Below, one piece after another: positions 6,020 through 63,913 of a stretch of DNA of 64,000 nt (position 1 is its first letter; every line of letters begins with the position of its first letter). A model generated the notes under the pieces. The model was not told the origin of the DNA, did not search any database, and was given only the letters and a program-made list of their open reading frames with translations. The DNA is from Sphagnum compactum. Taxonomy: Eukaryota. A program made the translations under genes and the position numbers. The stretch is from NCBI GenBank assembly GCA_965153455.1, contig OZ234493.1, positions 12,266,213-12,330,212 of the forward strand, in the 5' to 3' direction.

Positions 6020-6020
<1 letters not shown>

Positions 6021-6050: not shown

Positions 6051-6054
<4 letters not shown>

Positions 6055-6321
6055 GTGCGCTTGCTTGCCTTGATCTGTTTATTTTGATTACGAGGATTGA
6101 AGTCGTTGAAGATGAGCATTAGTATGGTAGAATTATACTCCAAGGATTGAAGGAGTACAGAAATCGGTACTGAGTTGGTGTTTCTCTGTTTTTTTTTTTT
6201 TTTGGGGGGGGTTTTTTTTGCTAGGGTTTTGGTATTAGGTTTGAAGGCAGTCGATCGGGGTGCACAAAAGCTTGCGAGAAGAAACGGAGAGCGGTAAGAA
6301 GATTATTATTATTATTATTAT

Positions 6322-10781: not shown

Positions 10782-10909
10782 TTGTCAACAAGCATGATTG
10801 ATGATTCAATTTTCTATCAAGCATGGTAACTACAATCTTGTTGACATCATAGAAAGGACACGATCCAATGTTTACAATGTCCTATATCATCAATCATGCT
10901 TGTTGACAA
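10782..10909. repeat. Perfect 24-bp inverted repeat with 80-bp spacer
   Basis: TTGTCAACAAGCATGATTGATGAT (10782-10805) and its exact reverse complement (10886-10909). Confidence 0.9.
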
Positions 10910-11976
10910 CAAACCTGTAACTTTTATGGTCTTTTGCAATGACATCACCCCTCAAGAAAACATTGAACCCATGAATTTGTCAGTCACAATGTGAGAAATC
11001 TGCCATCTTGCTCCATTCTTCCAAAACTCTTCACACCCCAGTTCAAAAGCAGAGGTCAACAAAATGAGGTGTGTGGCAAGTCCATTTTTTGCAAAAATTC
11101 AGTCATATTCACTAGCCCTCCTTTAGCTATTATTATTAATATTATTGATGAATTTAAATGACTCCATCACTACTAGAGCAAACTTAGAAACCAAGAATAA
11201 GTACAAGACTTTTATCCCATATGATAAATGCACTTTGTTCCACAAAAAAATATAAAACTAGTTTAAATAAGGCATCACCTCCTATGTGCAAAATGTTAAA
11301 CCACAGACCCACACAATTGTTTTGATTCCAGGTGATGAGAAACTGACCCATAGCAACCAATGGTGGTGCTCCACTTTTGTGATACATAACAAGCACGGAT
11401 GACAGACATAGCACTCGGTCACTCACTCTTGCTCACACACACACACACTCTCTCTCTCTCTCCACATGTCTATTTGATTTGTACTCCACACATTTTTGAG
11501 TTAAAACAACAACACAAGCAAATCTGCAGACACCCACTCCTTCCTATACAATTACTGATTTTTTTCCTTGCCTGTGTGCATGCATGCATGCATCCATCCA
11601 TCCTTGCATCCTTGCATCCTTCCATCCTTCCATCATTGTCCCTTCAAATAGGACACTAATCTTGTACTATGTTCTGTGAGGAGGCCCAAAACTCATTCAT
11701 CCCCACTGGTGTACCCCTTGTTGTTCCTCGTAGTATTTACAGATTTTTTCAACAAGCCTATGTCCTGGAGCAACCATTTGCTTCCATGAATCATTGTTAT
11801 CACTGCTGCTGGACCCCTTTCTTCCCCCTTCTGTGAGAATTGGGCAGGCCCACAGATCTTCGTAAATTGGATACGGGTAGCCATGAAGGCTGAGCTGAGC
11901 AGCATGGAAAATTAATAAAATACCCTTCAAATGGAATCCAATTATTGTAATGTTTGGTTTGGTCCCAATGACTGCT

Positions 11977-36297: not shown

Positions 36298-38546
<2,249 letters not shown>

Positions 38547-38789
38547 ATGGAAACAGTAGTAACAACTTCAAGTCCTTCAAGTCTCAGGTGCAGCAGCAAA
38601 AACGAAGCTGCAAATCTCAATGCGTCCATACAACAACAGTAGCAGCAGGAGCAGGAGAGCCACAGCTACGACAACTGGGAGGAAAAGACAGCTACGAAGA
38701 AGAAGAAGCTCTTGGAGAAACAAACCCTGCCTTTCGGGGAGTTCTCGGCGGTTTCACACCGTCCATAGTCACACTTCCTTCCCTCTATT

Positions 38790-39545
38790 CCCCAAAATTG
38801 TAAACATGACCAACACTTCCCTTGTGCAGCACAACCTCAAACGCTTCAGCCACATCTTCACAGTACAGGTAGCTTCGCACATTACATCCATCTCCATGGA
38901 TGGGGAGGGGCTTCCCCTGGCCAAAAGAATGAATGTGGGAATGAGCTTCTCTGGGAATTGGTTTGGTCCATACACATTATTGCCTCGTCTGGTGATGACA
39001 GGCAACCCATATGAGCGGCCATATGCCATCACCGGCATTTCTGCACCAGCCTTGGTGGCTGAGTAGGGATTTGTGGGAAGCAGCTGCGATGCTTCATGGT
39101 TTCCAACAATTGCATCAGCCTCAGTCTCTCCATAGACCTCATATGTGCTCACATGAATGAAGCGGTGGACAGTGCCTGTCACTTTGCATGCCTCCAACAA
39201 CACATGGGTCCCATAGATGTTGTTCTTTGTGAACTCAATACTGTTGCCAAATGAGTTGTCGACATGAGTTTGGACGGCAAAGTGCATAATGGTGTCAATA
39301 CCCTCAGTAATGAGAAGGTAGTTCACAAGATCTGCACTCCCAATGTCACCTTTCACAAACTTGAAATTCTTGGAGGACTTGGAGGGCAACAGATTCTTCA
39401 AGTTGGAGCAATAATCCAACTTGTCTAGCACCACGATCTCGTAATGTGGGTAGTTGCGCATCAGTCTGTTGGCAACATGAGATGCAATGAATCCTGTTGC
39501 ACTAGTTATCAAGATGCTTTTGGGAGTGTATGTGGCTTCCCCCAT
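38790..39545 (-). pseudogene. RHM1: 5' fragment of UDP-L-rhamnose synthase (RHM; UDP-glucose 4,6-dehydratase domain), truncated
   Basis: YTPKSILIT.ATGFIASHV..LDKLDYCSNLKNL..QTHVDNSFGNS..PTNPYSATKAGAEM..NNVYGPNQFPEKLIP. A frameshift at about 38918 continues as KPLPIHGDG.NVRSYLYCEDVAEAFEVVLHKG.VGHVYNFG, and similarity stops at about 38790. STDEVYG has become STYEVYG. Confidence 0.93.
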
Positions 39546-41017
39546 TATGATGATGACCTCCGTTTCTGCAAATCTGCCTGATATTATTCAGTAAGAAAGA
39601 ATTCTTCTCTATCAGAATTTTGTGGGCACAACACAAGAGTAACAACAAAGTTCGGTGGAGCCACAGACGGGAAATAGAGAGGAAGAGTGTAATTTGGACT
39701 CCCCTGCAAACAAGGAAGATCAAGACCAAGCTCTCTTTAGTCCTGGTATAATACCTTACAAGTACACCTGCTTTTTTTTGGTACTGTCTGTCATAGGGAC
39801 CGAATGTGAGGGACAACAAAGCGAGCAATATCTGCTGCTCACGACTACTAATCCACAAGCTCCTCATTTCCAACTGAAGAGATTATGTGTCGTCATTATG
39901 AAAACATAAAATTTCGAACAATCAAGATGTTCTGAGTGAAGCAAACATCATCAGCTAAACAGTGTCAAATTTCACTGTAGCAACTGGGAACTCTGACCCA
40001 ACTCATTACACTAAGGCAGATCTCAATTCAGTTGAGCACTCGAGGATAATATCATATATAATGCACGTGTTGAAATTAGAACTGATCAAACAGTTATCAG
40101 ATGATTTCAATAAACAAGATCTCTCTATTCTGAAATGAACCTTTGTTCATCAATGCTTAAATCCTCACGGTAAGAGGTCTATACATGCTCCAGCCCTCCT
40201 AAAATCATGCTTGCTCAATTGATGGTATTCTGTGAGCTACTTGCATTTGCAAACGGAATGATCCAAATGCTCATTCAGTATAACATTAGTCCTCTTCCAA
40301 CTATGTATATGCCTGGAAGGCAACCAAGTATATGAATGCAGCCTGTGCCAGAATAGATCTCTAAATCCATAAAGTTCATCACAGCCCTGTTTCTATTGAG
40401 TTTCAGCTCTGAAGTGTCCTGACAATGTTGTAAAAGAAATTCCATCAATACTGCTCAACGTTGTTGCCTCCAGCCTATGTGTCGCAGCCATGTTGCTGTT
40501 GTCTTCCCACCACCCTAGGCACCACAAATGGTGCCACAGAGTTATCCTACCTCATTACTTCATAGATTACAAGTCTTGGATCTTTGGAAAGATTTCTTTT
40601 ATGGCTACAGCACTCTTGCTGTATCTGATCAGCACCCACCAATCAGCACCAAATATCAAGTAAACATAAGTCCCTCTTACATTGTGCACAAAACCCTGCT
40701 CGTTCAGCACTTGTCATTCATGAACCTCTGTAATGGAATTATCCTTATTGCTTATCAAGCACTTCAGGCAGTCATGATGAACATCACCACTTCCCCCAAC
40801 TGCAACAGGTACCTAGACATTGAAAAAAATACCAGTTAGCAACAACATAACCACATCATAGCAGTCACATAGTGGCACAAGCACATCTTGTTATCCTCCA
40901 CTGGCTCTTCAACCAATGTCTCTGATATCCCATAAGCCCCAGCTTCAAGAAAACCCTCAAGCTCAGATGACCTTTCAGCTCAGCTCAGCTCAGCTCACAC
41001 ACCATGCGCTTTCCTTC

Positions 41018-41451: not shown

Positions 41452-44400
41452 TCATTCAAGGCCAACTTCATCCTCACCAGATGACCTTTGAAGCTCTTCG
41501 GCAGCTAGAATTGCATCAGCTCCGGTCAATTCAATTGCACCAACAAGTGCCATGTTCCTTGGTACCTCTGGAAATTCCAGAGGCACATCTACTCCAATTA
41601 AGTTGTCTACCATGGTAACTTCATCACTATCAGATACTAGGATGCGTTTGGACCTTGGTTCTTTGTGGAGGACAACCTTCCATCCTGGCATGTTAGGGTC
41701 ATCTGCATAAAAAACCTACTGCACCTGGGCTGGAAATACATAAGGTTCATCAACCCGTGCTTTCAATTGTCGAAAATTTACCAACAAAAACCCATCATCA
41801 TCACGCTTATATGTGGGATTCCCCCATCTGTCTAATCCATTTCTTACCCAATCACATTTGAACAATATTACTGGTTGGGATATAGGGCCATAGTCTAGCA
41901 AAATTATGTCCTTCAATATCCCCACATATTGAAGCGCCCCAAGTCTTGTACCCTCTGTTGACTGCTGCTCTTGATGGAAAACTGATGCAACTCCAAAATC
42001 GTATGTGGCACTTGTGTTGTCAGTGGTATTTATAGAAACTCTGTAATGATTTCCATATGCTTTCATTCTTGTGTACCTTGAAGCAAAAGGGGATGGCAAA
42101 ACTGATAGATGGAGTGCATCTTGGTCTTCAAGCACGCCCCCTTGTGCGATATGGCTCCGAATTGCTTCACGAACCCAACTTGCCAAGTTTTGCACCTCTT
42201 GGAGCTCTGGTGGAAACTCCACATGCCTGCTTCTTGTTCTATGCCCCATCCGCCATTGTGCTTCAAATTCTGCTCTTAACTGCCTTATCCGAATTGTTTC
42301 TTGCTCATACATGCTGCACCCCCAATAGCCAAGCCCCACATTAAGTTTATTAATTTTAGTTAGTTGTTCAACAAGAAAGTAACTTACCCATGCATCTATG
42401 ACCTCTTTACAATTTTCCAACATGGGTTTAAGGGGTTAAGGGTTGTGTACCAAACCCACGGTGCTAAACATGCCACATTTGTGATCACATATTGATGTGC
42501 CACATCTCGTGTTACAGGGTCCAGAGTCAACTTTGTGGCAGCCCCTTCCACAACTTCACCATAAACCCCCTCCTCTTCATCTGCATCCTAGATTCTATGT
42601 CGAACATGGCGGAAATCTTGTAGATATTCGGTGACAAACCCAATTGTCTCATCCAAAATGTAACCTTCTGCCATGGAAGCCTCTAGCCTTGACCTATTAC
42701 GAACATAACCTTTGAAAACCTTCATGGCCCGTTCTATTGGGTACATCCAGCGAGTATGAACTGGGCCACAAATGTCTAGTTCTTCTACAATGTGCAATGT
42801 TAAATGTGACATCACATCAAAAAATGCTCCCGGGAATTCCCATTCAAGCATGCTAAGAGTGATTGCTACATCTTCCCTTAGGTTTGTAGGTCAATTGGAT
42901 CCCAAACCTTTGCACATATGTTACAATACACTCGACTAAGGCACATCAAACTTAAACGTACATGAGCATCCATTAGGCCCCTTAGAGCTAGAGGCATTAA
43001 TTGTTGCATTAAAACATGCCAATCATGGCTCTTCATTAACCCAAGTTTCTTATCCATGATATGTTTTCCTAATGAGCCGCAATAATTTGTTGGCACTTTC
43101 AAAGAGGCTAACCTATTCATGAAAGTTTGGAGCTCTTCTGGTCTAAGGACATAGGGGGCAACAGGTTTAAAAATCTTGCCCGGCCTTTGAGGATCCCGTT
43201 TCAACCATAGATGTTCTCGGATTCCACACACTTCCATGTCCCGTCGAACCTTGATTGTGTCCTTCAATCCAAATATGAACTTGATCATACTCTCACAAAC
43301 ATTCTTCTCAATGTGCATCACATCTAACGTGTGCCTGATGAGTAAATGCTGCAGCAACCACCATTTCGGTTAAACAATGGTAATATTTACACAATTTGTG
43401 CCTGGGAACTACTATACCAAGATGTAAACACCCATATAATGATGCCACCCAATAATTGAAATCTCACAAATTGACAAATTTTAACAGGGACCAAAAATAT
43501 GTTTGCCCACCCCAGGACTCCGCACTTATCTCTGATTCCAGAAATGAACCACTTGATGCCTCAGTTGTCCCAGTAAACAGTCCCTTTGATACAGCGTCTT
43601 TTGAAACCTTTGATGATGAAGAAGATGAAGAACAACTAATCGCACTTGAAGACAAGATCTGGGTGGACTTAGAGGATGAGGCTGATGATCTCCTAGACAT
43701 GGAGTTAGAGGATGAGAGCCAAAAGACTGAATCTGCTTTGGAAGACATAAAAGTTTGTGATGATCCCCCAATGCTGCAAAGCACACTTCATGACCAAAGA
43801 GTTTTAAGTACTGAACTGGATAATGACCAGATGACACAGCATAGTCCAGTGGATGTAGATATGGCTGCCGGACATGCTTCAGAGGACCATGCAACAAAAC
43901 AAAAATGTGTCCAGTGAGAAAAACCAATCAAGGGAGACTATGGATATGACCGAAGATGATGCAGGCATTTATGTCATAGCAACAATAGCCAAGACCAGTA
44001 AGAACATCTCAGAAGGATCTCATAAAGAGGGTGAGAAAGGTAATGATGAAGTAAAAGGAATTCTGGAGCTTGAATTGAAGGTGAGACAGATGGAGCGTGA
44101 ACTGAAAGAGAAAGATGCAAATTTTACACATTTTGCTATCATGATGAGATGCATCTTTTAATGTTGTTGAAACCAGCTGGATCAAAAATCCATGGTATCA
44201 TCCAGTGTTGAACAATTGGACACTGACAATTCCAAACAGAACAGTGGTGTTACAGTGAGTCTAGACAAAGGGCTCTCAGAAGAGTCACCATGGATTTCAG
44301 TCTGGTCATAATGGCAGTGATAAGGGTCCATAATACAAGCTGTCCTTCACTCAATATGAATGTTGTTGCACATTCAATGTAGTGGTAGTCAATTCTGCAC

Positions 44401-47400
44401 GTTACCTTGCATCTTCAGACAAAGTCCTACTTGAGTAAACTACGCAGGATGGCATCCTGCCTGAATTCATACATAATTTTTCTACATCCTTACCCACCTC
44501 AACTCCTGGAATAGAGAGGTTTGTCAAGCAACTGAGAAAATAACTTCTATTTGCATATGCAGCAGTGCATCATGACCACCAGTTGCTTGCATGTAGCAAA
44601 GGGCATGTGCAATATGCATAGATATAGCAAAACCAAACTGTAATATCCCAGAATGATTTTGGAGAGGTACAGTAATGGTGTATACAAGGAACCATATTTC
44701 CCAATTTCCAGCAACATAGGGACTAACCTATTATGCTTCACAACACATCAAGGTTCTGAGATGATTAGTGTACTGATGGAGTCACAAAGTCTCAGAGGTT
44801 GACTCCATCCCTAGGAGGTTGAGAACCCAAGTTTAATTGCTTCATCTTCTTTGTTAACTATCTAGAGGGCCGGTCACCCATGGACAAGACCAGCAGATGC
44901 TCTGCAGCTGTGCCACCAGTATGGCCCACACCATTTCAACCTCACCTGGACTCCAGGGCCCTCAAGGAGCACAATTTTCTTCTATGGACTTCTATGCACA
45001 AGTTGTTTGCTTGAAGTTACCATGACCAATTCGTCATTTCTTGAAAAAAGAACAGAATCCTTGGAGCAAAAAGGAGGAGAAAAATTTGTGAAGAACACGA
45101 TACATTTTTGGGCTTCTTTGGCAACCCCTAATTTGGGTCTTCCATCATCAATCCTGATAAGAAAAGGCCTTCTTGAGTCACAAACAATGATACAGTTGGA
45201 ATGAAATGAATCGTGGAAGAATGGACTGATGAGTGAAAGTGGTACTAATAAGGGAGTTCTCATAAGAGTGAGGAATACCAGATTGTGACTCATCAATAAG
45301 TCCACACTCCAAAAATACTCAGTGATTCATGTAGTACATTGAATTCCAGAAAATTACATGAACCAACCAGGTGTCTGAATTGGTCACTTTATGTTCCAGA
45401 TATTCACATGAAGATGAATAAGAAGGTACTTCTTGGATAGCCAAGTGCAAAAGTAAACTGAATCTAAAGGGCAGTGGACTGATTGAAGAGTCCCTAAGCA
45501 GAGTAGTTTAATATACAACGAGCAACTGCATTGAAAGGTAACACTGTATTGAAAATGAGGGGGTTGTGACATAGATGAGCCAAATGAGGGAGGAAGCACA
45601 GGAAAGAAAAAGGGTCTGAAAGCTTGAATCGGAAAACAAAAAGTGTGAAACCAATGATCACCTGGGTGGACTTAGAGGATGAGGCTGATGATCTCCTATA
45701 CATGGAGTTAGAGGATGAGAGCCAAAAGACTGAATCTGCTTTGGAAGACACAAAAGTCTGTGATGATCCCCCAATGCTGCAAAGCACACTTCATGACCAA
45801 AGAGTTTTAAGTACTGAACTGGATAATGACCAGATGACACAGCATAGTCCAGTGGATGTAGATATGGCTGCCGGACATGCTTCAGAGGACCATGCAACAA
45901 AACAAAAATGTGTCCAATGAGAAAAACCAATCAAGGCAGACTATGGATACGACTGAAGATGATGCAGGCATTTATGTCACAGCAACACCAGCCAAGACCA
46001 GTAAGAACATCTCAGAAGGATCTCATAAAGAGGGTGAGAAAGGTAATGATGAAGTAAATAGAATTCTGGAGCTTGAGTTGAGGGTGAGACAGATGGAGCG
46101 TGAACTGAAAGAGAAAGATGCAAAGCTACGACAAGAAGCTGCAGTTGAGCAAGAGAGAATTGAGATGCTTGAAAAGAGGGTTCTTGGAAAGTTCAAGGCC
46201 ATTGATGCTGGAACGAGAGCAGCGAAGACAAAATCTGAGGGAGGAAGCACATGAAAGAAAAAGGGTCTGAAAGCTATGAATCGGTTGACAAAAAATGTGA
46301 AACCAATGATCACCCTTGGATCAGCAAACATGTCAAAACTCAACAGGCCTAAACATGTAACACAATTGAGGTGGGTGGGCTGAATAATTCATGCTCACCT
46401 CCCAATATGGCAGACCCCAGAATGCACATAAACGCTTCATCCCACTGCTTCTCGATGGACACCCTTTTGCCCCCAACACATTTCCTGCAGCCACCCACTT
46501 TTCAGTGGCGTGGGCTTGTCTTTTCGCCTCAGCAGCTGTTATTAGATCTGGCCTTCCCCTTAACTCCTCATGACCATTAAAATGTTGGGCAATGGGATGA
46601 ATTCTGTATGGGTGATTTTGATTCAGCCACCTTCGATTTCCTTCAAACACTACCTTTCCCAACTCCTTTGACCATCGACTAGTTGTCCCTGATCCACATG
46701 GAGGGCATGCTTTGTAACCCTGATGTTGGCATCCAGAAACTAAGCCATACTCGGGAAAATCATGAATCGTCCACATCAATATGGCCCTCATTAAAAATTG
46801 CCTTCTACCTATAGGTTGTAGTATGTCAAGCCCTCTAACCCCCTCCCATAATTCTTGGAGTTCTTCAATTAGAGGACTTATTAGGACATCAAAGTTTGCA
46901 CTCTTAACACTCTCAGGCCCTGGAATTATGATAGATAAGAGCATGAAGAACTTCTTTGTGACTAGCCATGGTGGGAGGTTATAGATAGGAGTAATACTGG
47001 CCAAGTGGACCAAGCATTTTTTTTGTCCCCAAAGGGTTCACCCCATCGGTGGCCAAACCTAGTCTTACATTTCTAGGTTCAATTGCAAAATCAGGCCATG
47101 TATTATCAATGTGTTGCCATGCTTTGCTGTCAGGCACATGGCGAACTTTCCCATCTGTGCTCTTGTTTCTAGCATGCCATGTCATCATCTCTGATGTCTG
47201 TCGAGCTCGGTACATACGTAGCAACCGAGGAATTAAGGGGAAGTGCCGCAGAACTTTTTGTGGAACAAGAGACGTGCCAAATTTCTTGTACCGAGTAGCC
47301 CCGCACTTTGGACAAGCCTCCAATGTAGAATACTGCTTCCGAAATAAAATGCAACCATTCACACATGCATGGATGTGCTTGTAGTCTAGGCCTACTTTCC

Positions 47401-48205
47401 TAGTAAGGCTCTTAGCTGCATACATGCTAGGTGGTAGAAGGTTATCCTTTGGCAGTAGGTGCTTATGAAGGAGTGCTAATAACTCATCCATGAACTTGTT
47501 GGATACGCCATGCACTGTGCAAACATTCATCAACAGTAATGTTGATGCTAGCTTCGTGCACCTTGCACCATTGTACAAAGGCTGACATGCTTCCCGTAGA
47601 CAATTGGCCTCAGTTGAGATGTCATCATCACTTGCTACTAATGGGGGCCCTGTTTCACCTAGTCCCATGTCATTGTCCACACCCCCCTGTCCCCTATCAT
47701 GGTTATTTTGGTCGGGCATGCTTTCAGGCAATGCTGCTAACTCTTCCATGATCTTGATGGCATTCTGCACCATGCCTGTTACCTCCATTCCCTCTACATT
47801 ATGGTCTGAAGACAAGTTTGTAACCCTCTCACCCTCATGTTTTTCCTCTGGCATTTGGAATAGGTCATCCAAAAGTTGGTTCACATTCACAGCCTCATCC
47901 ACTACCTGCACCTCCACCTCTATTCCCATTGGGTTTACTACTGCCCTGCTTGCTTCAACCCACTCTTCATCAGAGTGGTCAGTTGGGCCTGGGCCTTTCC
48001 ACACTCTAAATAGTGGATGCCTCCCATTTAGGATTAGGTGGTTTCTAACTGTCCTAAGTAAAACCATTCTGCCCATTCCTTCACATTTGGCGCATGGACA
48101 CCGCATCTTGTCCACCCCATGTTGTGTGGCCCATGTGAGCTCCCGCTTCCACAACTTGTCATCCCTTGCTTTTTGCCTTCTTGGGTCATCCAAAGGCATT
48201 GACAT
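41452..48205 (-). pseudogene. CACTA TnpD/Tnp2-like transposase (transposase-associated, Transposase_21, DUF4218, DUF4216 regions), decayed
   Basis: MRCPCAKC..HLILNG, IHACVNGCILF..CPKCG..RY, LRHFPLIPRL, EPRNVRLGLATDGVNP, YNLPPWL, WTIHDFPEYG, LPYWE|HLLIRHTLDVMHIEKNVC, KSHDWH, GPVHTRWMYPIER, LFKCDW, DEPYVFPAQ. Intron 46398-43349 and a short one at about 42450-42313; frameshifts at about 47031, 46989 and 42879; stops at 42588 and 41716. Confidence 0.93.
43659..46124 (+). repeat. 463-bp dispersed direct duplication (43659-44121 and 45662-46124) inside the transposase intron
   Basis: Near-identical copies at a constant offset of 2003, encoding WVDLEDEADDLL..ELKEKDA; a second block of about 80 bp (45581-45662) matches 46230-46314. 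Confidence 0.92.
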
Positions 48206-48939
48206 TATGTCTTCCCTCAAATAATGATGGAATGACAAGAAATCTTGACCAGAACTCCTTCACAGTAAGTGGCAAAATTGGACAACATCACACTGTTATG
48301 AAACCAGGAAATGATAACTTGCACTCAGATATCCAATCAGGTAAATCCTAATTGCAAGCTTTCAGATAAAATCTTCAAACTGCTAGAGTCTTGACAATGA
48401 AATGTATGAATGTGGTTCCATGGACAATCTCCACCAAATCGTGCAACGTAACAAAACAAATGTTGTGTCTTTTCCAGCCTGTGAGTACCATAATCATCAT
48501 CATCCTCTTCACTGTGAATGGCAATGGGTACAATTAAATAGATGATAATATGCTCACACCTCGTGCAAAATTTCGGAAAAGCAGATCAAAGATACATACT
48601 CAAGTGATCAAGAGCTGAAGGAGGCATGACCCCTGAAATGCAACCACAGCCACCAATCACCAAATAGAACATTGAAAACACATCCATTAGCTCCCTCTGT
48701 CACAAAGTGGAGATCAATTCCAGACAAAAATCTTTCCTTCCATTGACCTCAATTCATCACAAAAGTCTTATACAACTGTGCATCTCTTACCTTTATCTCC
48801 ATTTTCAACATGTGGCTGTCACCTACATTCCAAGGACAGGTTTTGCATGTGAAATGGCTTTCAAGAGGGGTTCCTCATGTTGTGCTAGTTGATACGTTGG
48901 TCTTGCAAGTCTTGCATCTCTTAGAGGTCATCTGATCTA

Positions 48940-50029
48940 TGATGATACATCCGAGGCAGCTGAGGAATTAGATAGATCCAACAATGTGTCCGATGGAAAA
49001 TTTGATATGGCAGAAGATGAGAGAGTTGCTGAAGCAGTCATGGGAGAAGTCAATCTCCGTAAGCAGGAAGAGGACATAGCTGGTGAATCGGCTGCTGCTG
49101 CTGCCCACATGTCCCCTCTTTTTGAAACTAGACCTGCTCCAACTCTACAGCATAAGCTTGCATTTCCTGCAGAAGAGCCAAAGTTGGAAGAGATTGAAGG
49201 ACAAGGGTTACATCTGAATTGTCTTGATGAACTTTGTACATCTCTTGAAGCTGAAAATTGTGATACAGTTATGTCAGTGGGAACACTGGACATCTCTGAG
49301 GGGCTCCTCCCTGAGAGGAATCTGGAGATGCCAGGGGATGACAGAACTAAAACTGAGGTAAATTAGAAGGAGCAGAGACCTTGTGAGGAACAAACTATGG
49401 TCTTTGCAGTTGACACCAATCACCCAGTTGCTTCAAAGCAGATGCTAGACAATGCAGGGGATTACCCAGTGGAAACTTCTGAGAAACAAGAAGATGAGAG
49501 CTCTGGAGACACATCTGCTGAGGTGTCCCTGAATTTCAATCCAAGTCATGCTCCAACTATGCAGGAGAATTTTGTGGTCCCTGCAAAGGAGTTGGTGACA
49601 GTTGATGGTGTGGGTGAATATGTGCATCTTAATGTTCCAATTCTTCCTTTCTCTGTTGCCTCAGATAACGAGGTAGAGTAGTTGGATTATGAGAACTATC
49701 CAGTATCTCGAAATGGAACCTGTAATGCTACAGAACAGCTAGAAGAACTAGCTAAGACAGAAGGATCACAAGGGGTCAATGATTTGGATGAAGAAAAAAC
49801 CAGATTACCTACTGGCGAAGGTACCCACTTGAACTCTTGTATGAAGACATTACATGCTCCAAGCATGCAAGAGAGTTGTGCATATCAGGCAATGAAGATA
49901 GCTTCAAAGAAAGATTCAGGTGAATCAGTGGATTTGCAGTCCAGCCACACTCTATTGGGTACCTCACCTGCTGCAACTGGAGACAATGAAGAGGAGACAA
50001 CAAGTGGGGAATTGATATTTCCAAACTAG
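48940..50029 (+). pseudogene. Decayed 1.1-kb acidic, low-complexity reading frame (unidentified captured fragment)
   Basis: ORFs 48986-49366, 49397-49681 and 49682-50029 share one frame, separated only by TAG stops. Confidence 0.6.
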
Positions 50030-50339
50030 ATGTAAAGAACACGCTAGGGTGAAATCAGATACAGTTTAGGGTTCATGAATGACCTTGTCTATGAATGAGG
50101 CTGAGTAGCATCAGTAGTTCTGCTCAAATGGTGCCGAGGGGTACAACATTCCACACTCGTAATAAAACTTCACATCAAGTAGCCAACGAAGGCATACAAA
50201 GTTAGAAATCTTGTGCAAGCAATCTTCTACATATTCTTTTGTCCCCATACAAACAAATGCCTAACACCTACTTGTTATATGTTGGTGATCGATATGATGT
50301 TTTAGGTCTAGATAGCACGAGGGGCAGGACAAGCAACTT

Positions 50340-52062
50340 GGGTGCCAAGACAAGGTGGCCTTGGGCATCACAAAGGGAGGCAGCGGAGGAGTCGGTGAGC
50401 AGCAACAGAGGAGGAGGCTCATACGACTCCGACAACCTCTCTCTGTTTGTGAGCGATCTCTCCGACATTTGCAAGGAATTGGTAGGGTCTTCAGAAGAAC
50501 ATACGTCTTTCGCTGTTGCAATTCTGTTCGATGAAGAGATTGGCGTTTTCAGTATTCTGGAATGCATCATGCGAATCCGCGACAAGAGTGTTGCAAAAGC
50601 CCGTGAAGACTGTTTGAAATTCGTTGAAGCTTTTGTCAAGCAAATTGGAGGACGTGCTCTTCCCCATGTAGCATTTCTGAAGGTGAGTGAGTGAATGAAA
50701 TGCGTTTCTTCTTCTTCTTTTGCTTTTTTTTGTTTTTGTGTTTTAGGGTGTAGGGTTCTGAAAACGAAGAATTCTTGGTGCTTTTGTTTATTAACAGTGT
50801 GGCTGATGGGTGGGTGGGTGGCTGTCTGTCTCTGTCTAATATGCCTTCTTGCTCACGAGGAACATTGTTTAAGAATTTTCCGGAGAGATGATGTCAAAGG
50901 TGTCCAAGCAGCAGCATTGAAGCCCCTTACTGTGCTGCTGGAATGGAACATTTTGCACTCGAAGCAGCCTCCCAACTTCTCGGTGGATTGGGGACTTACC
51001 AATGTGCTGATTGTTGAGTTTCGGCAAGCAAAATCACATGGAACATGTGCTTGAAAACAGTTCTCACCCTTTTTTCCTGTTTTCAAGATCTATGTACACA
51101 TGATGTTGATGATGTAGGTTCCCATCAGTCCTCTTGCTATGGTGAATCAATCAATGAATTCGTTAAAATCAGATCTATTCTTGTATTCCTTGTGGTGAGT
51201 TTTTCTCATCATCATCAAAGGTAACGTCTGCTGCTTTTTCAGCCTCTTCATTGTAGTAACTTCATCAGTATCTTCTTCTTCTTCTTCTTCTTCCTCCTCC
51301 TCCTTCTCCTCATTTTCCTCCTCTTTTATGTCTTCCTCTTTGTGTAAAGTGATTGTGCTCCATTTTGGAAGAAGAAGGTGGAGAACATAAGACAACACCC
51401 TGATGATTCCTTTATAATTTGCCATTGTTATGATGAGCTGAGCCCAATTTCAATACCTGGAAGAAAGTGGGTGGTTTTTCTTAAACCCTTTTGTGTGCAT
51501 GTGGTGGTGGGGGGGGATCTTGTAGTGAGATCGCACATTATTGTGCTGCTTAGGTACTTGGTTGAGAGTTTCAAGACTGCATTCAGTGAGGACCAGGTGA
51601 ACCAACTCTTGCAGCTTTATATGAACACACTGGAAGCACAGTTACAACAACCCTCGCACACACTCCTGGTAGGAGCAATGAAGTGTCTTGACTCGCTGCT
51701 CACTTGGTTTGTGAGCAGCGAGTCAAGACATTTCATTGCTCCTGCTAGGAGCGTGTTGGTTTGATGATGAACTTCCTGCAGGAGGTAACAATATGTGCAA
51801 TTGGTAATTGGTGGTTTTATTTTCTTTTGGGGGGACATGGGGGGACATGTTCACAATTTTCCCTTGTGCATAGGGTGTTGGGGTTGTCCTGTTGGGAAGC
51901 TGTCTCTTCATTTGGACCATGCACAGATAGATGGATATCTGAGAAGAAATGGTGGGCTTCAACAACTTGCAGGTTCTGTAGTGAATTCACGGAGGTGCTT
52001 TGAATATATTGAGCAAGTATTATGGCCTCGTGAAGACCTAAAGAGATACGAGGTGTTGAGAG
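50340..52062 (+). pseudogene. PRKDC: N-terminal fragment of DNA-dependent protein kinase catalytic subunit (4 exons with introns)
   Basis: Exons about 50340-50682, 50860-51046, 51526-51784, 51973-52062: LFDEEIGVF..AREDCLKFVEAFVKQIG..HVAFLKEHCLRIFRRD..AALKPL..LLVGAMKCLDSLL..SRRCFEYIEQVLWPREDLKRYEV. This follows the order of the DNA-PKcs N-terminus as I recall it (CREEILKFL..LAGCLKGLSSLL..SREIFNFV..IDLKRYAV). The 5' start is uncertain. Confidence 0.8.
51658..51756. repeat. 46-bp-arm fold-back (hairpin) within DNA-PKcs exon 3
   Basis: 51658-51703 pairs with 51711-51756 around a 7-nt loop TTGGTTT; 42 Watson-Crick pairs, 3 G:U and 1 mismatch on the + strand. Confidence 0.95.
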
Positions 52063-53381
52063 GTATATCCTTGCACACTATTCGAATTTCCCGCTACACG
52101 ATTTCCCTTTTGGAGTTGCATGCAAGAGAAGTTGTAGAGATTTTTCTCATCTTTTAAGTAACTGCAAATTTGGACTCTCAAGCTGTGTGGATTTTAAGTT
52201 ATGTAGCTCTTCTCCTTAGATTGTTTGGTCTTCTTCTGTTTCAGGTTTTGTTGAGCTTTGCTTTCTTCTTGGGTTTTTGGTTTTCCCCTTCTCTTTTAGG
52301 TTTTGTTTAGCCATGCAGCACGATGGCTGAGTTAGTCCATTACTGCCAAACGTTTCTTCTGATAGAATGTTAGTACACTGGCTAACGTTTGACCTTAACC
52401 TCCACCTATTACTAAGAGTTGATGAAGGCAATGGGGATGTTCTGGTAGGTGTTCAATTCCATACATGTTGCTATTGAAGGTACTTGAACATGCATATGAA
52501 CAGCCATTGTTGTTCAAACTGCTCCTCAGTTTTGGTTTTGGTCTTGTTTTTCTCATTTCTTAGGCTTGGTGTTCTTCGTTCATGCCGCTATTGGTTGCTG
52601 TCATGTTATCAAATTTGAAAATTTGAAATGTCGACAGCTAAATTTCAGTGGATTTTCTTCATTTGCCATCTTTAGAATTAAGCACGAAATTTAGTACTGA
52701 ATTGGTAGCACTCTTGGTTTGAGGCAACAATCAGCCATTCTAATTGACTACTGTTTATGAAAATTGGAGAGCTTTTGACTTAGTTAAATGCATTGCAATA
52801 CTTTGAGAGCCCCTTCAAATATTGTGAATCCATGCTGAACAATCTAATCAACCTTTTTTTTGCCTCCCTGGTCCTGAAATGCAGTTGCAAAGAAGGAAGG
52901 GTATTCATGAAGCTGAGCAGGTTTGGCTCAGGCTACTTTTTTTGGCTGCACACGCTACCCTACCTGTTCTAAACCTTCCTTCAACAAGGCACAAGCAATA
53001 TCTGTTTTAACAAAGAGAAATAGGCATGCTTTCAGCTGAAAGTTGAAAGTTTATTATACCTTGATATTGGGTGATAGCTGGGAAAAGTAGAGGTTTGTGT
53101 TTCTACAAAGTTTATTTTCCTTGACAATTGTTGGTTGCTGCTTTGAGGTAATGTCCCTTGCTTTATAGAATTGTTGTGGAGTAGTTTGGCAAGGCTTGAG
53201 AAGGGCCTGAGGTCTGACCCAGCTGCCAGACTAGTGTGTGGCTATGTTTTCTGTTTTGCTGGTCCCATGAAGCCTGCAGCAAACCTAAGACTCCTACTGT
53301 GTTCCATCCACTATTTGAAGTTGATGTTGCACCTAAGTGCTTGTTCTGTAGTATTTAATAGATATTTCTGGTGGATTGCAG

Positions 53382-53706
53382 GTAATGGTGCCCTATATGT
53401 ACGAATAGTTCATCAGCAACTTGACATATGAGGTCAAAAGCGGGAACATCCCAGTGTCACGGAGTGATGATGTTGTTGCCAGAATTCTTCTGGTCAAATT
53501 TGAAACAGGTCTCTTTGAGGACCCTTATGCCAACAAGGGGCTTAAATCATTTATTGGCCAGCAAGTAATCACCTGCCCTCATGATTCATGAATTCAAGGA
53601 ATTGCAATAGTTTGTACTTATGCCCAACATTGGTCCACAATTGCTTAACCTTATCGTTGGAGTATGCAGAAGCACATAGATCATTAGCCCGTGAAGTAGT
53701 TAGAAG
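53382..53706 (+). pseudogene. Internal fragment of a glycoside hydrolase family 3 beta-glucosidase (one exon, an intron and part of the next exon)
   Basis: 53382-53564: [49 protein letters not shown]; after an intron, AHRSLAREVVR. Matches the plant GH3 consensus IPMSRIDDAV.RILRVKF..GLFE.P..EHR.LAREAVRKS. Confidence 0.85.
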
Positions 53707-54130
53707 CAATAGCCTCTCTCATATAACCAAACAATCTCCAAGCTTACGGAAGCTACCATGGTGGAGAAAGGCAGAGAAAGAGATGGGAATAAGGATTTGG
53801 GAAAGTTTGCTATACCAAGAGACTTCAGTGGAACATATTGTGAAGCAGATCTTCTAAACAAATTTCAGAACAAAGTCAAAGGACATCTTCTGCTTTGCCA
53901 TAGACCAACTCACAAGACTTCTCTCTTGCTTTCTCTCTGATGAGTAATTCAAGCTTGCTGTGAAAATGTCATTCACATAGTGTCTGTCAACCTGTACATA
54001 GAAGCTCCTTTTTGTGCAATCAATATTGCTCTTCATTGAGGACCATACAATCAAAATTTGAGTTGACACAAAGGCTGAACTGCTAATGCAATTCTTTGTG
54101 CAACAAGATGCCATAATGTAGCAAAGAAGG

Positions 54131-54252
54131 ATGTGACCATTAGGAGCTCAGATATTGAAAACTACAAACAAGAAAATGTGACCACCAGGAGCTCATGTAC
54201 TGAAAACTGCAAACAAGAAAATGTGACCATCAGGAGCTCATGTATTGAAAAC
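54131..54252. repeat. 45-bp tandem repeat (about 2.7 copies)
   Basis: ATGTGACCA..AGGAGCTCA..TA.TGAAAAC..CAAACAAGAAA starting at 54131, 54176 and 54221. Confidence 0.88.
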
Positions 54253-54932
54253 AGTATGTAGAGCTGAGTAAACCGGAACATCACATGCACATATCATGAT
54301 GAAGTGTTATGCGCATATGCACTTTCTTGTAGAAACTTTCAAAGGATTGCATTTGAAGATGTGCAGGTGCAAGAGTATAATGCAGGGAAACAAAATTTGA
54401 AAGGGAAGATGAAAGAAACTTTCACCATGGGTGGGTGGCTAATACTACTCTTTGAAATCATCCTTGTCATTTGCCGGAACCGGTCTGTTTCTCCAATTTA
54501 TTTGCCAAGTATTGATTTTTGAACTAGCTCTAAACTCACACATTTCATATACTGATGAACTACAAACTGCTACAAACTGCATGAACTTTACAGACTAAAA
54601 AATCAGAAGTATCAGCCTAATGTGCAAAACATGCTCCTTGTTAGGCTCTTATTCACACCCTTGTAAAGAAATAAAATTGGTTACAACTATCTAAAAGGTA
54701 CCCCATAATAAATGAGGGTTTGTACTACACTGGGGAATTTGCAGCTACTAAATGCTTGTGTGTGGGCTCAACATGTTCAAGTTCAAACTGCAAAGGTTGT
54801 CAGGCTTTCCCTAAAAACCAACTTTTCTAGACTTGGAAGAGTAGAAGCATTGGGGAGGCTTGTGGCATACCATAACAATTAGCATTTCTAAGGCAAGACC
54901 AACATAAGGCTAGTTGTTTGAGTAAGGTACAG

Positions 54933-57900
54933 ATGGAGCGTGACGAAAATGCAGTCATCAGTGATGCTGATGGTACAATGGGTCACGATTCAGGAACGGT
55001 GGATGCTGATCCCGAAGAAACAACGCTAAACCCCTACATTTTAGCACGTAACAGGCGTGTTGCTCAACTCAAACAACGACTTGCAGAAGTTGAAGGAAGC
55101 GCACAAGAATTGTGAGTTCTTCTTAGACTTGTCTTCACATGCATAAATGGAGAGGACCATACAGAATTCAGTAATGGATCGTGCAATCTCCATTGCCTGC
55201 ACTGTATGAAAGAGTTTGGAAGTCCGACTATGTGCGTGAGTTTTGTGTATACGCAAATAGTTTGAACACGCTTCAATAATCTTTGTTCTAGTGTTAGGTT
55301 GTAGCTACTCTCCAAATTCCAATCTATTCTAAACTTTTCATGGGGTTAGGGTTTAGGGTTTGAAATCGATGTGTTCGGTGCTACCATGAAATAGGGTTCT
55401 TGGTGATCATTTACTACATGCATAGCTTAAAATTAGGTTTGTATGCTAGTTAGTGGTCATGTGCTTATTGAGACATTCTTAGTCCAAACTAATTACTCCT
55501 TTGCTGTATTTTGGAAACACTCGGTCACTTGGCAGTCGTCACTTCATGGACTCAGCAACCATGCAAGGGAGGAAGAAGACAAATAAGAAGTCCACCCAAA
55601 AGGTGGTGGATGGGAGAACACTTGGACACCAAAGCAAGAAGAGGAGCACTAGGAATGCTGGAAAACCACATCGTCATGTGGTGGAAGAGGAAGGGTCGTC
55701 GACATCAGCAGCATCTAGTGAACGCGACACTTCATGTAGCAGTGACTACAACTCAAAAGCAGAGGAGTCAGAAGGTTTTGAGCTGCCAGTTGCATCTTCA
55801 GTTATGAAGGAACAGAATAAGGCACCTAGCAAACGGACCCCCACACCAAATGTAATGTACCCCTCCCCCCCCCCATCAAATATTGTTTCTGAGGTCCATT
55901 TTGATGTCAAAGATACTAAAAGTAACAACATTATTGAAGGCACAATATCTGTGAAATTTCTGACTGGTCCTATATGAGCCTTGCTAGTCCGTATTGAGTT
56001 GAAGTTTATTCTAGCAAATGAAACTAAAGCAGAATAAAAACATGTAGGCAAGATCTACAACTTCACAGACAAACAAATTCTGGTAAAATGTTAACAAACA
56101 TTAAAAAGACTCCCCCCCACAGGCTTTGTGACTCAGCCTGACTCTGTGCCCCGAGCTCCCTCCCTCTATGTCTGATGTGTGTTTTTTTCTGCAATCTGGT
56201 ACTATGTGATTTTGTGTCTTTTGTTGCAATTTTGGTGTCTGATTTTGGTAGCCTGGTATGTGATTTTATTTTTTCTGGTGTGCAATTTTGTGTTTTCCTG
56301 CAGTCTGGTGTGTGTGATTTTGTGTTTTTTGATGCAATCTCATGTGTGAATGATTATTTTTTCCAACAATCCAATCATCCAAACGTCATGTTTTTGCTAC
56401 AGTAGTGTATTGTTTCCTTACAGATTCCTTAAAGATTTTCAGAGATCTTTTTTCTGGTTTATTTTTGATAGATGGATTGTTTTGCTAGTGATCTGATCAA
56501 CCACTCTCTTCCTTATCATCTGTGGACTTGGTGCACACCTGTTTTGCATTCACCATCTAGTTTGATATAACACAAACAGAGACAAACAGAACTTTCTTCT
56601 CTTCTTTCTCTTCTGACATCATATCTAAATTGAATGCTGCATTTTATCCCCCTCCAAGATTCCTCAAGAAGCAGTGACATTGGTCTTGACTGTAGATGTA
56701 TTATTGTCAAGATTGTGTTCCAACTGCACAAGCCACACTGTAAAGAGATGTGATGCTCTGTGGGCTTTTGTGCCTCAAGAATGTGAAGAAGTATAATTAA
56801 TGATCCTAGAATTGTCTCCCTGATGAGTTTGCAAATCACTTTTTTCTTTAGGGATTGCGTGCTTGTCTTACGGTCCAAATGCCCCGTTTGTTACAGGAGA
56901 ACTGATATGTGCTTACTGGCTCTTAAACTGCACATTAGAGATAGCCACTTGTAGAACATCTAGTATTGTCTTGTGGGTTTACATGTTACAGCACATAAGC
57001 TCCATAAATTTGGAAATGGAAACATAAAATGGGGCCCAGTTAAAAAGGTAATTGCCAATACTCATTTGTCTGTCTTCAACATTAAGTCTCTCAACTATGA
57101 TAGAAGGCTTAGGCAATAACACCTTAATTCTTCAACTAGCCTCTGTCCGTTTTCAGATAAGGGGGTAATTTATGTTATTTACAGTGTCAATCATAGTAGA
57201 ATGCTGAGTTTTCTCCTTTTGTTCTCGGTCTTGATGTTGGCCATGTATTAAGTGAGTGGAAGGCCAAAGTTCTTTTGTTTGTACAGAAGAGGACTCATGA
57301 TTCCTTACTGGTTCAAACCTCTTCTGATTCTTCTTTGTACAGAGGTTGAGGTTGCTGGTATTAAACATGGTGTAGAAAGGGATGGAGAACTCACAAGCCA
57401 ATGATGGATCCAGTAGGTCTGCATTGGACCACTTCCGTATTCCAGACACATGGGTCTGTGGTGTTGTAGGGGTCTCGGTAGTACACTTTTTCTTGATTTC
57501 CTTTATCAAGATTGGAGATTTTTGCTTGAGCTTGTAATAGTTTCTTTAAATTCAGAGCTTGCAAAGTCTATCACTATTCTTGGAAATTATTGCCTTTATC
57601 CAGAGTGTCTTCAAGCTTTCAGTTAAGATCTAGAATTGTGCCCTTTTTGTTCATCAGAGTTTTTCTTTTGTATCAGGTTTTCTTTCATGTCCAGAAATAC
57701 TCTTATAAATCTCCATGATTTCAGTAATGCAAATATGAAGTGGTTTTCTTTCAGAAATTTGCTGATCATGTTGTGTTCTGTAAAGGGTTAATTAAAGTCT
57801 CTCAACAGGCTTAGAACGTTAAGGCAAAAGCACCTCAAACTTGTTGCCAAAATTTGTTCTGTTTCATATAGAGGTGTCATCTATGTAATCTGTAACACTG

Positions 57901-60900
57901 GTTCCAGTTAAGTGCTATATGATGGTCAAACCTGTAGCTCAGTCTTTGCAAGATCCTAAGAGCATGTAAGAGAAGCTCGAACATTGGAAAAGCTCACCAA
58001 TTCTGTTTTTGATTTAAAACTCTTCGTATGTGCCTAAGTCAAAGAAGTTTGTTGTTCATTTGGTATCTTTGCTAATGAAAAAATTATGGGAGATTTATGG
58101 ATTCAAATGGGAAAATTGAACGTCAAAGGTTCAATCTTGCTGCCACAATAATAGGAGGAAATGGATGGCTGTCCTTCATTCTGCATTTTCTAGATCGTAT
58201 GACTTAGAAAGAAGGTTGTGTAGCCAAGTTTGTAAAACCAGTCCTATGTTATGGAGAAAAGGTCTAGAGAAGGTCCTAAACTTTCTGTTGTGCATCCCAA
58301 AAAGTTCGAAAGTCCAAAGTCAATCCCTTGCTGTTGGTTGGGTTTAGGGAATTTTCTCTTCGTGTGCCCTTCTTCTATAGAAAGATCCTATCTGTCATGA
58401 TTCATCACTGGATTACCTTAGTGATCCATATGTTCTTTCCATAGAACTTTTGGCTGGATACAAAAGAAAATTGGATTTCCTCTATAAAGTTATACCTCAT
58501 GGGAAGGTGTTTTCTGAATTTCTTACCAAAAACTTTGTTGGTTGTCTTCAATGTCATCAGTCTTTATGTGCATGCCTTTTATATGTAGCCCTATTTGTGT
58601 GATTAGGGTTGTTCATGATTGATAAGTTTGCCATACGAATCTCTGTTTTTTTGGAATTTACATGTCTCATGTTGACAATATATGAGCAGACTGTATGTTT
58701 TCCTAGCTTCTACCCATTCCCTATGTATAACTTGTTGTGTGTGTGCTTGAGAAAAGAAAGCAACATCAAAGAAAGCTCGGGTTGAAACCCCACCACTTGT
58801 CGATATGGTGAATGCCACTAGGCTACAAAAGACCACATCGGCAGCAGTACAAAGTCGCAAGCATGGTGGTGACTTTGCAAGGTGCAATAATCAGGCATGT
58901 AAACATGGTGTTGGAAGTTCAGAATGCACATGGAATGCTGGACAATGTGGGCACACAAGACAGTGGAGTTCTTGCCAAGTGTCACAATGTCCTAATTCGA
59001 AGGTAAGATTGAGCCCTGGGCACAAGGGACTTACAAACTGTTGTGCCACTTGTGGAAGGGCTCCAAGCAACATGTATGAATCAACATGGGGTGAAGGAGG
59101 GGGTGTGTGTGATCAGGGGCTATGTCAAAGGGTGCAACCACATTCACCCATGGGCAGGCAAGCACCAGACATGGCCTTGGACAATGAAATAGAAGTAGAT
59201 GCCCAGCCCAAGGTTTTCGCTGAAAGGGGTATGCAACGACGGGCTTCAAAGCGAGCTATAGAATTTGAAGCCCAAGAACGAAAGGAGAAAAGCTTGCTAG
59301 GCCATAAGGTGCAAGTGACAAGGCATGGCAAAATTGATGGTGCATGTGAAGGGAAGGATGCATGGGATGGTGCGATTAGGTCGCTAGCACCTCGGATTTT
59401 GAACATGGCAGTGGTTAGGGTTACAGAACAGGACCCTGTAGACATGGCTAGACTCCGGTTGCAATTGGATGGGAGATTTGAATATGTAGGTGGTGAATTA
59501 AGTGGGGCTGGCTTTAGGGATTGTGTAAGGCGATATATGAAAGGAGAAAGAGCACGCTTAAAAAGAAGGTATGCACAGAAAGGTGCCAAAGCCTGCCCAC
59601 TTGAAGTGGACCGAGAACAATGGGAGAAATTAGTGACATATTGGCAACAACGTGAGACCAAGAATAAAAGTGAACACATGGTTGGTGCAAGAGGGGCAGT
59701 TGCAAATGTAAGCCACCTTGGGCGTGGTGGTAAGGCAGCTATAGAAGCAAAATTGGCAAGTTAACCCTAAAACCCTACTCCGTTGTGATGGCCAAATGGA
59801 AATTACAATATGTTGAAGTTATTATGCACTCACATGCCACATACAATGCTAAGCACTGAATGATGTCTGAAATGGGTGAATGCAGAAATCCAGGCATCGC
59901 CGAAGCCCATCAATATCTGAGATGGCTGCTGTGGGACTAGAATCTAGTGGCACACCTGGGTACCCAGTGAGTTTTCCTAGCTGTTTCATTTGTCTTTCCC
60001 TATCCTTTCCCTTTCTGTCTTGGTTATGGTTGATTGAGGGGATGTGATTAGCACTGGTATTGCATGGCCTACCTCAACCAGAAAGTCTGCTAAAACAGTA
60101 CCATCATCAGTAGAAGCTGGTGTAGCCTTTCCAAACAGCTTACCAAGTGACATCCCCTCACTGCTTTTACTAGTATCTGTCTTGGAAATGATATCATCAG
60201 GTACTGTGTCACCTGTGGCATAATGACCCTGTGGATTCAAGCTCCATAAGTCTGTTGTTTCATGCAATTGCTTCACACTTAAGCTTCCAGTGGTGGATGA
60301 AGTATCATGTACTGCCTCATTCACAATTTTAAGTATTTCAACATTGGTTTCCTTAGCAGTATCTCTTGAATCAAAATCATCTGCTCCAGTATTCCAGATC
60401 CTTCATTCTGTGTTTTCCTGATATCTCTTAATTCTCCTGTTGGTGCATATGTGGTCTCCAATCTTGCCCAATATGGTATTCTGAATTTTGTTTTTCTTTT
60501 GTTTCTTGTCTTCCCTTGTTTGGTTCTTTTTGTGGCTTCCTGAGGAAGTGTTAGCCTTGCTGTTTCTTCTTCATCGTGAGATTGGAAATTTCTCTATTCT
60601 CATGCTTTTGGAATTGCGATTTAATTTGGTTTAGTTGCATTCTTTTGAGTGTTCTCCTTATACAAAGGTTTAACATATCGGATCTGAATGTTAGAGAGAA
60701 ATTTATAACAAATATTGGTTTTGGTAGGTTGTTTTTAAGTCCCATTATTTCAATACTTTCTGTCAATTCAGTGGAACAACCATTCACCTTGGATATATTT
60801 GGTTGAAATAGTAAGGATAAGTTGAGTTCTGTGTTGTCAATGTAGCAGAAACTTCAGATTTTATCTTCTTGGCTAGATTTCCTCGTAGATAACTTGTTCC

Positions 60901-63820: not shown

Positions 63821-63913
63821 TAACCCTAAACCCTAATCCTAACCCTAAACCCTAACCCTAAAACATATTTAACCTGTATGATGGAAAACCCTAACCCTAA
63901 ACGTAACCCTAAA
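63821..63913. repeat. Short degenerate telomere-like CCCTAAA/CCCTAA array
   Basis: About 10 mixed 6- and 7-mer units in two clusters. Confidence 0.85.

Follow-up and report, generated by a model that had tools for sequence, protein, structure and literature searches.

How does a short piece of the gene for DNA-PKcs, a protein of about 4060 residues, come to lie beside a transposase gene? The question is raised by a stretch of 64,000 nucleotides on contig OZ234493.1 of Sphagnum compactum (hereafter the window), which is plant-like nuclear DNA with spliceosomal introns and which carries, at 50369-52200, sequence resembling the 5′ part of a DNA-PKcs gene. After comparison of this segment with proteins, metagenome contigs and transcript reads, we consider it most probable that the segment is inert host cargo, captured once by a family of TNP2 transposons and amplified together with the element. 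According to this proposal, a CACTA-type (TNP2) family of a peat-moss-like genome would have taken up the DNA-PKcs piece a single time, at the DNA level, and the piece would then have been multiplied along with the element, presumably by transposition. The element would transcribe its copies, in which the inherited splice sites are used, yielding chimeric RNAs in which a transposon leader is followed by DNA-PKcs exons and then by transposon or GH3-derived exons. The copies would encode no conserved protein, and they decay by cytosine-deamination-type mutation, in the manner of methylated repeats.

The identification of the piece as DNA-PKcs, originally made from the letters alone, was borne out by protein comparison. 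In a search of 1.84 billion representative proteins, the translation of 50341-50682 matched 17 proteins at E ≤0.001. The match to P0008 (4062 aa) had E 3.5e-17 and 46% identity over P0008 residues 23-107, and P0008 carries the full DNA-PKcs set of Pfam domains, that is, DNA-PKcs_N (4e-82, residues 50-697), CC1-2 (2.2e-92), CC3 (3.9e-50), CC5 (4.1e-90), PI3_PI4_kinase (1.8e-48), FAT and FATC. A tblastn comparison of P0008 with the window gave five collinear pieces (aa 24-107, 107-168, 168-237, 233-242 and 241-290), and besides these five nothing with E <0.2 was detected in the 64 kb. The link to the human protein is provided by P0014, a plant N-terminal piece of 763 aa, to which the window exons align at aa 14-271 and which itself aligns to residues 20-762 of human DNA-PKcs (E 1.4e-47). 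Three other searches were silent: none of the four single-exon open reading frames matched a DNA-PKcs family in Pfam, phmmer of exon 1 against PDB gave no match, and a homologue search limited to proteins of 201-2000 aa returned no DNA-PKcs protein.

The window holds residues from about 11 to 276 of the protein. For the CC1-5 cradle, FAT, PI3/PI4-kinase and FATC regions no tblastn or blastn match was obtained in the 64 kb, indicating that we are dealing with a fragment and not with a gene. The lack of any continuation, remarked in the original prediction, was confirmed by blastn of four intact DNA-PKcs loci (L007-L010, described below), which hit the window only at 50369-52200. In PMC8021618, DNA-PKcs is reported in bryophytes, lycophytes and gymnosperms and as absent from flowering plants, in agreement with the earlier statement that the gene was lost in flowering plants and retained in some non-flowering plants. 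The captured piece (plus strand, 1.83 kb) begins within exon 1, of which it retains the greater part, runs through exons 2-4 with the intervening introns and stops 138 nt into intron 4; its parts are as follows.

50369..50682, plus strand: remnant of DNA-PKcs exon 1 (P0008 aa 24-107); parental homology begins at 50369.
50683..50859, plus strand: intron 1, 177 nt, GT..AG; the spliced joint 50682/50860 is present in X15/X16 RNA contigs.
50860..51046, plus strand: DNA-PKcs exon 2, 187 nt (P0008 aa 107-168), of the same length as in the parents.
51047..51525, plus strand: intron 2, 479 nt, from sequence reading and collinearity with the parents.
51526..51784, plus strand: DNA-PKcs exon 3, with a length of 259 nt as against 207 nt in the parents, from tblastn and parental comparison.
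51704..51755, plus strand: palindromic insertion of 52 nt in exon 3, from an inverted-repeat search and parental comparison.
51785..51972, plus strand: intron 3, 188 nt, from sequence reading and parental comparison.
51973..52062, plus strand: DNA-PKcs exon 4, 90 nt, ending in EDLKRYEVLR, with the donor GT at 52063.
52063..52200, plus strand: start of parental intron 4 (138 nt), up to the 3′ breakpoint of the capture at 52200/52201.

In order to locate the parental gene, one scan of metagenome contigs was performed with the exon-1 peptide, which gave 19 loci (14 close plus five distant, the latter with 34-43% identity), and intact DNA-PKcs genes were indeed found on four contigs, L007-L010. 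Over a region that 13 sequences have in common, the parents L007, L008 and L009 agree with each other to 99.6-99.9%, and L010 agrees with these three to 97%. In all four parents the exons follow P0008 collinearly from aa 1 up to about 1693-1711, where the DNA examined ends, and the similarity with the window is confined to 50369-52200, at 91-92% identity. The four parental genes begin MEKKLEDCLAAL, which stands in the parents at the place where the window, upstream of 50369, has transposon-derived sequence; the window homology starts 31 nt into the parental coding sequence, with the ATG and about the first 10 codons gone. At the other side the similarity breaks off within parental intron 4, and the window has no trace of the exon that comes next in the parents (…VTLRLLSRH…), so that the piece is a DNA-level copy of 1.83 kb and neither a retrocopy nor the resident gene. 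As to the limits first proposed for the feature, the end at 52062 was exact, being the exon-4 donor, whereas the start must be moved from 50340 to 50369. The four exons had also been described as phase-compatible; their boundaries are correct, with phases as in the parent, but the frame is not maintained, because the 52-nt insertion breaks exon 3.

This insertion, which shifts the reading frame within exon 3 of the window copy, combines an 8-nt direct duplication (TTGGTTTG), which brackets it, with the 44-46 nt of exon sequence just before it, copied in inverted orientation; the result is two arms of 46 nt (51658-51703 and 51711-51756) that are 91% complementary. It was found in the window and in L002, which are about 4% apart, and neither in L003 nor in the parents L007-L010. 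The region 51658-51763 looks like the scar of fold-back templated repair. Another length difference lies upstream of the captured piece: at 50277-50280 the window misses about 165 nt that are present in L002, L005, L013 and one RNA contig, and of which L003 keeps 110.

The exon order, introns and splice sites are those of a gene, and they would equally be expected if a misassembly or a transposon insertion in intron 4 had severed the 5′ end of a resident DNA-PKcs gene from the rest. The junctions speak against this. The upstream junction, which replaces the ATG region, is common to 8 loci, with L001-L006 and L013 among them, and to at least 10 other peptide clusters, the 3′ junction recurs in L002 and L003, the next 12 kb contain no more parental sequence, the parental genes have flanks of their own that differ from those of the window, and the sequence depth is repeat-like (see below). 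With the window junctions shared by other loci, the misassembled resident gene that the original prediction had named as an alternative is excluded, and a resident 5′ end in the wider sense is extremely improbable.

The claim that the fragment sits inside a cut-and-paste element also held: a multi-copy unit encodes a CACTA-type (TNP2) transposase and holds the DNA-level copy of the 5′ part of DNA-PKcs. Within this unit the fragment is located between the TNP2 transposase gene and a TnpA-like gene of opposite strand, as listed below; the reads cited are from X24, a run of polyA raw reads in which 229 matched reads were obtained from 11.9 million records.

41716..48259, minus strand: remnants of a TNP2-type (CACTA/EnSpm) transposase gene, from Pfam domains; frameshifted in the window copy.
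50084..50139, minus strand: exon at the 5′ end of the transposase transcript, as seen in a related moss; 23 X24 reads join 48631 to 50084.
54901..59764, plus strand: TnpA-like gene with exons at about 54901-55111, 55507-55977 and 58751-59764, from a weak Transposase_24 match and X24 reads.
46998..55353, no strand assigned: minimum extent of the repeated unit containing the fragment, from L002 (46998-54966) and L003 (48224-55353).

The transposase was recognized by Transposase_21 (6.4e-40 and 1.8e-13), Transpos_assoc (1.1e-5), DUF4216 (2.5e-5) and DUF4218 (4.9e-32). The window copy lacks one base behind 46985 and one behind 47030, both of which are present in nearly all RNA and DNA contigs compared. 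The X24 reads that join 48631 to 50084 have 26 letters between the two sides and first mates on the plus strand, and the first intron of the TnpA-like gene is supported by four X24 reads joining 55111 to 55507. The same fragment is carried by other family members, as L002 and L003 remain collinear with the window to the left and to the right of it, at about 95-96% identity. A direct duplication of 463 nt (97%) was also noted between the Transposase_21 and DUF4218 parts of the transposase region, at 43659-44121 and 45662-46124.

The abundance of the unit was estimated with DNA run X1 (2155 M letters), using word depths from Logan contigs. X1 contigs on the transposase, the fragment and the downstream part showed word depths of 692-978 among the matches listed, with bins of 342-2122, and the DNA word depth was even across the repeated unit (46998-55353), at about 700-1500. 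Because single-copy plant sequence cannot reach such a depth at this run size, the depth, uncalibrated as it is, says only that tens to hundreds of copies of the unit exist. Over the same region common to 13 sequences, the nine captured ones differ mutually by 3.3-6.6%, and the tree is star-like. Four captured forms and one parent were found under one contig-name prefix and five captured forms under another; these are multiple copies, and since no contig reaches a flank, their count is not a count of different genomic sites. A protein search with E ≤1e-10 yielded 33 peptide clusters at 90% identity, which were sorted by their N-terminus into 10 with the transposon junction of the window, 15 with an ATG and the D>E change as in the window type, 3 parental-like, 4 N-truncated and 1 left unclassed; for one cluster the source name is Sphagnum balticum. 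RNA runs with the stretch are labelled moss or plant metagenome, and three organisms contain 57-69% of its words (for runs X2-X14 and X17-X22, word shares were taken as presence of the stretch only).

Some of these data would also suit another arrangement, in which the DNA-PKcs/GH3 block would be a non-autonomous element in its own right, of Pack type or from some other superfamily, that lies nested between the TNP2 gene and the TnpA-like gene. Expressed transposase reads pass into unlike sequence right of 50139: 36 X24 reads continue there in sequence not resembling the window, and the 30-letter consensus built from them had no match, at up to 3 mismatches, in the window or in the 19 loci. 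In addition, the exon-1 bin has a depth of 342 against about 580-1500 in the other bins, X1 DNA contigs skip 50140-50681, 50822-55340 and other parts, and the block varies among copies. On the other hand, the block is without flanking inverted repeats, L002 and L003 preserve the whole arrangement collinear with the transposase gene, and in a further sister copy, L012, the same cargo, differently arranged, is again linked to the 5′ part of this transposase. We therefore judge a nested element to be unlikely, and retain cargo of the TNP2 family as the preferred reading.

Fixed differences at 21 sites set the captured copies apart from both parents and point to one single capture event. How that event may have proceeded is suggested by the permuted form L012, in which nucleotides 7522-9441 consist of parental 11781-12599 joined head to tail to parental 9920-11010. 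The first part takes in what remains of intron 4 and the exons behind it, up to a point within the exon that encodes about residue 373, and the second part represents a 54-nt leader, the ATG, exon 1, exon 2 and beyond. The head-to-tail junction 12599/9920 shows microhomology of 2-3 nt, and the left end of the parental block falls no more than 1-2 nt from the 3′ breakpoint of the window type; the contig stops short of the right junction. The simplest account would be one capture of 2.68 kb via a circular or tandem form opened at about 11780, from which the window type would have been derived later by losing the left part. This account is drawn from a single contig, L012, plus the 15 ATG-type peptide clusters, and the junction may record capture through a circular DNA intermediate. 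As another source of the breakpoint, a transposon insertion in parental intron 4 was considered and rejected, because the abutting sequences of the window and of L012, compared by eye, show no inverted-repeat relation and no target duplication.

Separately from the capture, an element of about 820 nt was observed in two sister copies, at 493-1310 of L006 and 408-1229 of L012, 89% alike and in opposite orientations. One insertion is in a DNA-PKcs fragment copy, within intron 1, and the other is in the transposase region of a second copy, with duplicated target overlaps of 8 nt (window 50742-50749) and 12 nt (window 47563-47574); this is probably a small mobile element whose activity postdates the spread of the family.

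The coding state of the copies was then compared. Frame-breaking length changes were found in 6 of the 11 captured sequences over the exons covered, namely +52 in exon 3 of the window and L002, −14 in exon 2 of L003, −1 in exon 2 of L004, and an exon 1 of 316 nt in L005 and L013. An in-frame stop is present in 7 of the 11, and either a stop or a frameshift in 9. The window copy itself is dead, being without ATG, with a frameshifting insertion of 52 nt and with a frameshifted transposase. The pooled ratio of nonsynonymous to synonymous change (pN/pS) was 0.59 for captured copies against their consensus and 0.20 for L007 against L010, by a crude Nei-Gojobori count with the strong transition bias uncorrected. 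Among 378 substitutions in captured copies, 276 were C>T/G>A, only 23 were T>C/A>G (a ratio of 12:1) and 79 were transversions, whereas the 51 polarised changes in the parental lineages included 18 C>T/G>A and 18 T>C/A>G. Because the C>T/G>A excess is seen in the captured copies but not in the parental 5′ region, we infer long-term cytosine methylation of the transposon copies, with the donor spared.

DNA-PKcs is not the sole host sequence in this family. Two further fragments were recognized in the window.

53382..53564, plus strand: exon fragment of a GH3 beta-glucan exohydrolase (ExoI-like), from the PDB search; its acceptor at 53382 is spliced to the exon-4 donor.
38769..39686, minus strand: RHM-like NAD-dependent dehydratase/epimerase fragment (GDP_Man_Dehyd, 9.9e-45).

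The GH3 assignment is given by the match of 53409-53564 to residues 328-379 of barley ExoI (E 1e-9 in the PDB search); Pfam gave no match for this exon. The RHM-like fragment has an open frame of 272 aa, in which the nucleotide-binding and catalytic motifs are probably altered relative to plant RHM proteins. It is probably further cargo of the same transposon family; in L014 this piece directly abuts DNA-PKcs exon 3, at the seventh base of that exon. A CS-domain piece was found in the sister copy L012. As these GH3, RHM-like and CS-domain pieces are unrelated host sequences, capture looks indiscriminate, and the proviso of the original prediction, that the capture of a repair gene may be chance, turned out to be its better reading. 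Near the RHM-like fragment there is also an exon of a ubiquitin-conjugating enzyme at 37539-37811 on the minus strand (UQ_con, 2.3e-14), which belongs either to a resident gene or to further cargo.

Transcripts of the copies were detected in RNA contigs and in raw reads. One RNA contig of X15/X16 has the transposon-type 5′ junction, includes the 165-nt piece missing from the window and ends at the exon-1 donor. Three RNA joints leave from the exon-4 donor, one of which reaches 53382, beside the GH3 exon, with GT..AG borders, and the others 52416 and 52886; when the joint 52062-53382 is read in frame, a stop is reached after 16 codons. In X24 the depth on the fragment is at most 2.85, with the first mate on the minus strand throughout, and the transposase region and exon 50084-50139 have first mates on the plus strand. 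If the library is stranded as usual, these reads represent sense transcripts of both the fragment (weak) and the transposase.

The close likeness between copies and donor raises the possibility that the fragments regulate the donor, either through small RNAs acting in trans on DNA-PKcs mRNA or chromatin, or through a truncated N-terminal protein that disturbs end joining. Material for such an effect is at hand: 743 of the 1812 fragment 21-mers are exact in L007 and 851 of 1812 in L010, the exons are 97.4% identical to the parental ones with exact runs of up to 137-180 nt, sense transcripts exist, and the mutation spectrum of the copies points to methylation. Captured fragments in maize are likewise reported as small-RNA reservoirs in a review (PMC13317346). 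Several observations stand on the other side. The 51 changes in the parental 5′ region are free of a methylation-type bias (18 against 18), which leans against a lasting chromatin effect; no antisense (first-mate-on-plus) reads were found on 50343-52346 in X24, a single polyA run; the frames required for a protein regulator are broken in 9 of 11 copies; and the unrelated co-cargo favours chance. Regulation of the donor is thus in our estimate quite improbable, and there is equally only a slim chance that the copies form a standing small-RNA source that tunes the donor gene, and with it the balance between end joining and homologous repair, in the moss lineage. If this were true, the element would damp the very pathway that seals its own excision breaks.

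Inert cargo, captured once and amplified with the element, remains our preferred reading, and a number of points weigh against it. The window yielded neither terminal inverted repeats nor subterminal repeats nor a 3-bp target duplication, so that the mobility of the element is putative. The best CACT[AG]...[CT]AGTG pair (18423/41355, the sole pair at 15/20 matches) has unlike flanking triplets and does not enclose the unit, an 11-mer scan of the window revealed, simple repeats aside, no repeat cluster, and an inverted-repeat search and self-BLAST of the window gave no convincing element ends; these ends may lie outside the window. The TnpA-like gene is a weak match, its Transposase_24 hit (E 0.0019, 18.8 bits) being under the Pfam cut-off of 28.7. 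The depth of Logan contigs is not calibrated to copy number, and metagenome contigs may mix moss species, so that some of the copies may be orthologues. The pN/pS of the captured copies is below 1. On the RNA side, the contig sets X15 and X16 are nearly identical and were counted as one source, the chimeric joints have short sides of 25-37 letters, and the intron-1 joint (50683-50859 removed, GT..AG) is not assignable to one copy. The RNA joint of exon 3 and exon 4 carries a variant found only in the parental L010 and may come from parental mRNA, and the intron-containing X15/X16 contigs could be DNA carry-over.

Some features around the TnpA-like gene are recorded here as observations. Short telomere-like arrays of TTTAGGG type flank this gene at 55330-55360 and 63822-63871, in inverted orientation and 8.5 kb apart, and the L003 contig stops at the first of them. 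An inverted repeat of the near-perfect hairpin type lies at 61144-61294, with arms at 61170-61214 and 61220-61264 that are 84% complementary. Compared with the window, L003 has about 1.3 kb extra (5522-6820) between window positions 53693 and 53715.

For annotation, dozens of short public "hypothetical proteins" are such fragments, and can be mistaken for extra DNA-PKcs genes or for the true 5′ end of the gene. For the mechanism of capture, the parent, the ATG-bearing permuted form, the 5′-truncated form and the form with the palindromic insertion make up a well-resolved natural series in which the uptake and reshaping of cargo can be studied. For the conflict between donor and transposon, the locus offers a concrete and testable pair that involves a repair gene.

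Capture of gene fragments by CACTA elements is textbook knowledge for flowering plants, and the present case is ordinary gene-fragment capture with an unusual cargo. Among the matches listed in our literature search, no CACTA capture was described for peat moss or with DNA-PKcs cargo. Compared with the plant DNA-PKcs genes treated in PMC8021618, the window piece derives from a true DNA-PKcs gene, but is without the forehead, FAT, kinase and FATC regions and without a start codon, and its frame is broken. The likeness to maize Helitrons, Pack-MULEs and Sirevirus elements, as summarized in PMC13317346, consists in many near-identical donor exons inside silenced repeats, with a possible conflict with the donor; the comparison with the maize small-RNA reservoirs is one of sequences, and the mutation spectrum of the present donor shows no sign of methylation.

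The Pack-CACTA elements of Arabidopsis (PMC6379663) are CACTA-related and acquire and move chromosomal DNA, as the family described here would; aberrant excision and deletion derivatives are common among them, and many internal deletions were likewise found among the present copies. Pack-type elements are non-autonomous and without transposase, whereas the unit in the window has TNP2 and TnpA-like genes; because it keeps transposase genes, it is not of the Pack type. For Pack-CACTA it is proposed that DNA lying between two insertions close to each other is taken up, a route from which alone the permuted, head-to-tail order of L012 would not be expected.

Tgm-Express1 of soybean, as presented in PMC1947982, is a CACTA element with five host gene fragments. 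Both systems carry several unrelated host gene fragments together with their introns, and in both the inherited splice sites are used to form chimeric multi-exon RNAs. The element described here differs from Tgm-Express1 in its moss-like host, in keeping its transposase genes over a length of at least 8 kb with its ends not found, in belonging to a high-copy, old family whose copies are 3-7% apart, and in a cargo that includes DNA-PKcs, a gene missing from flowering plants.

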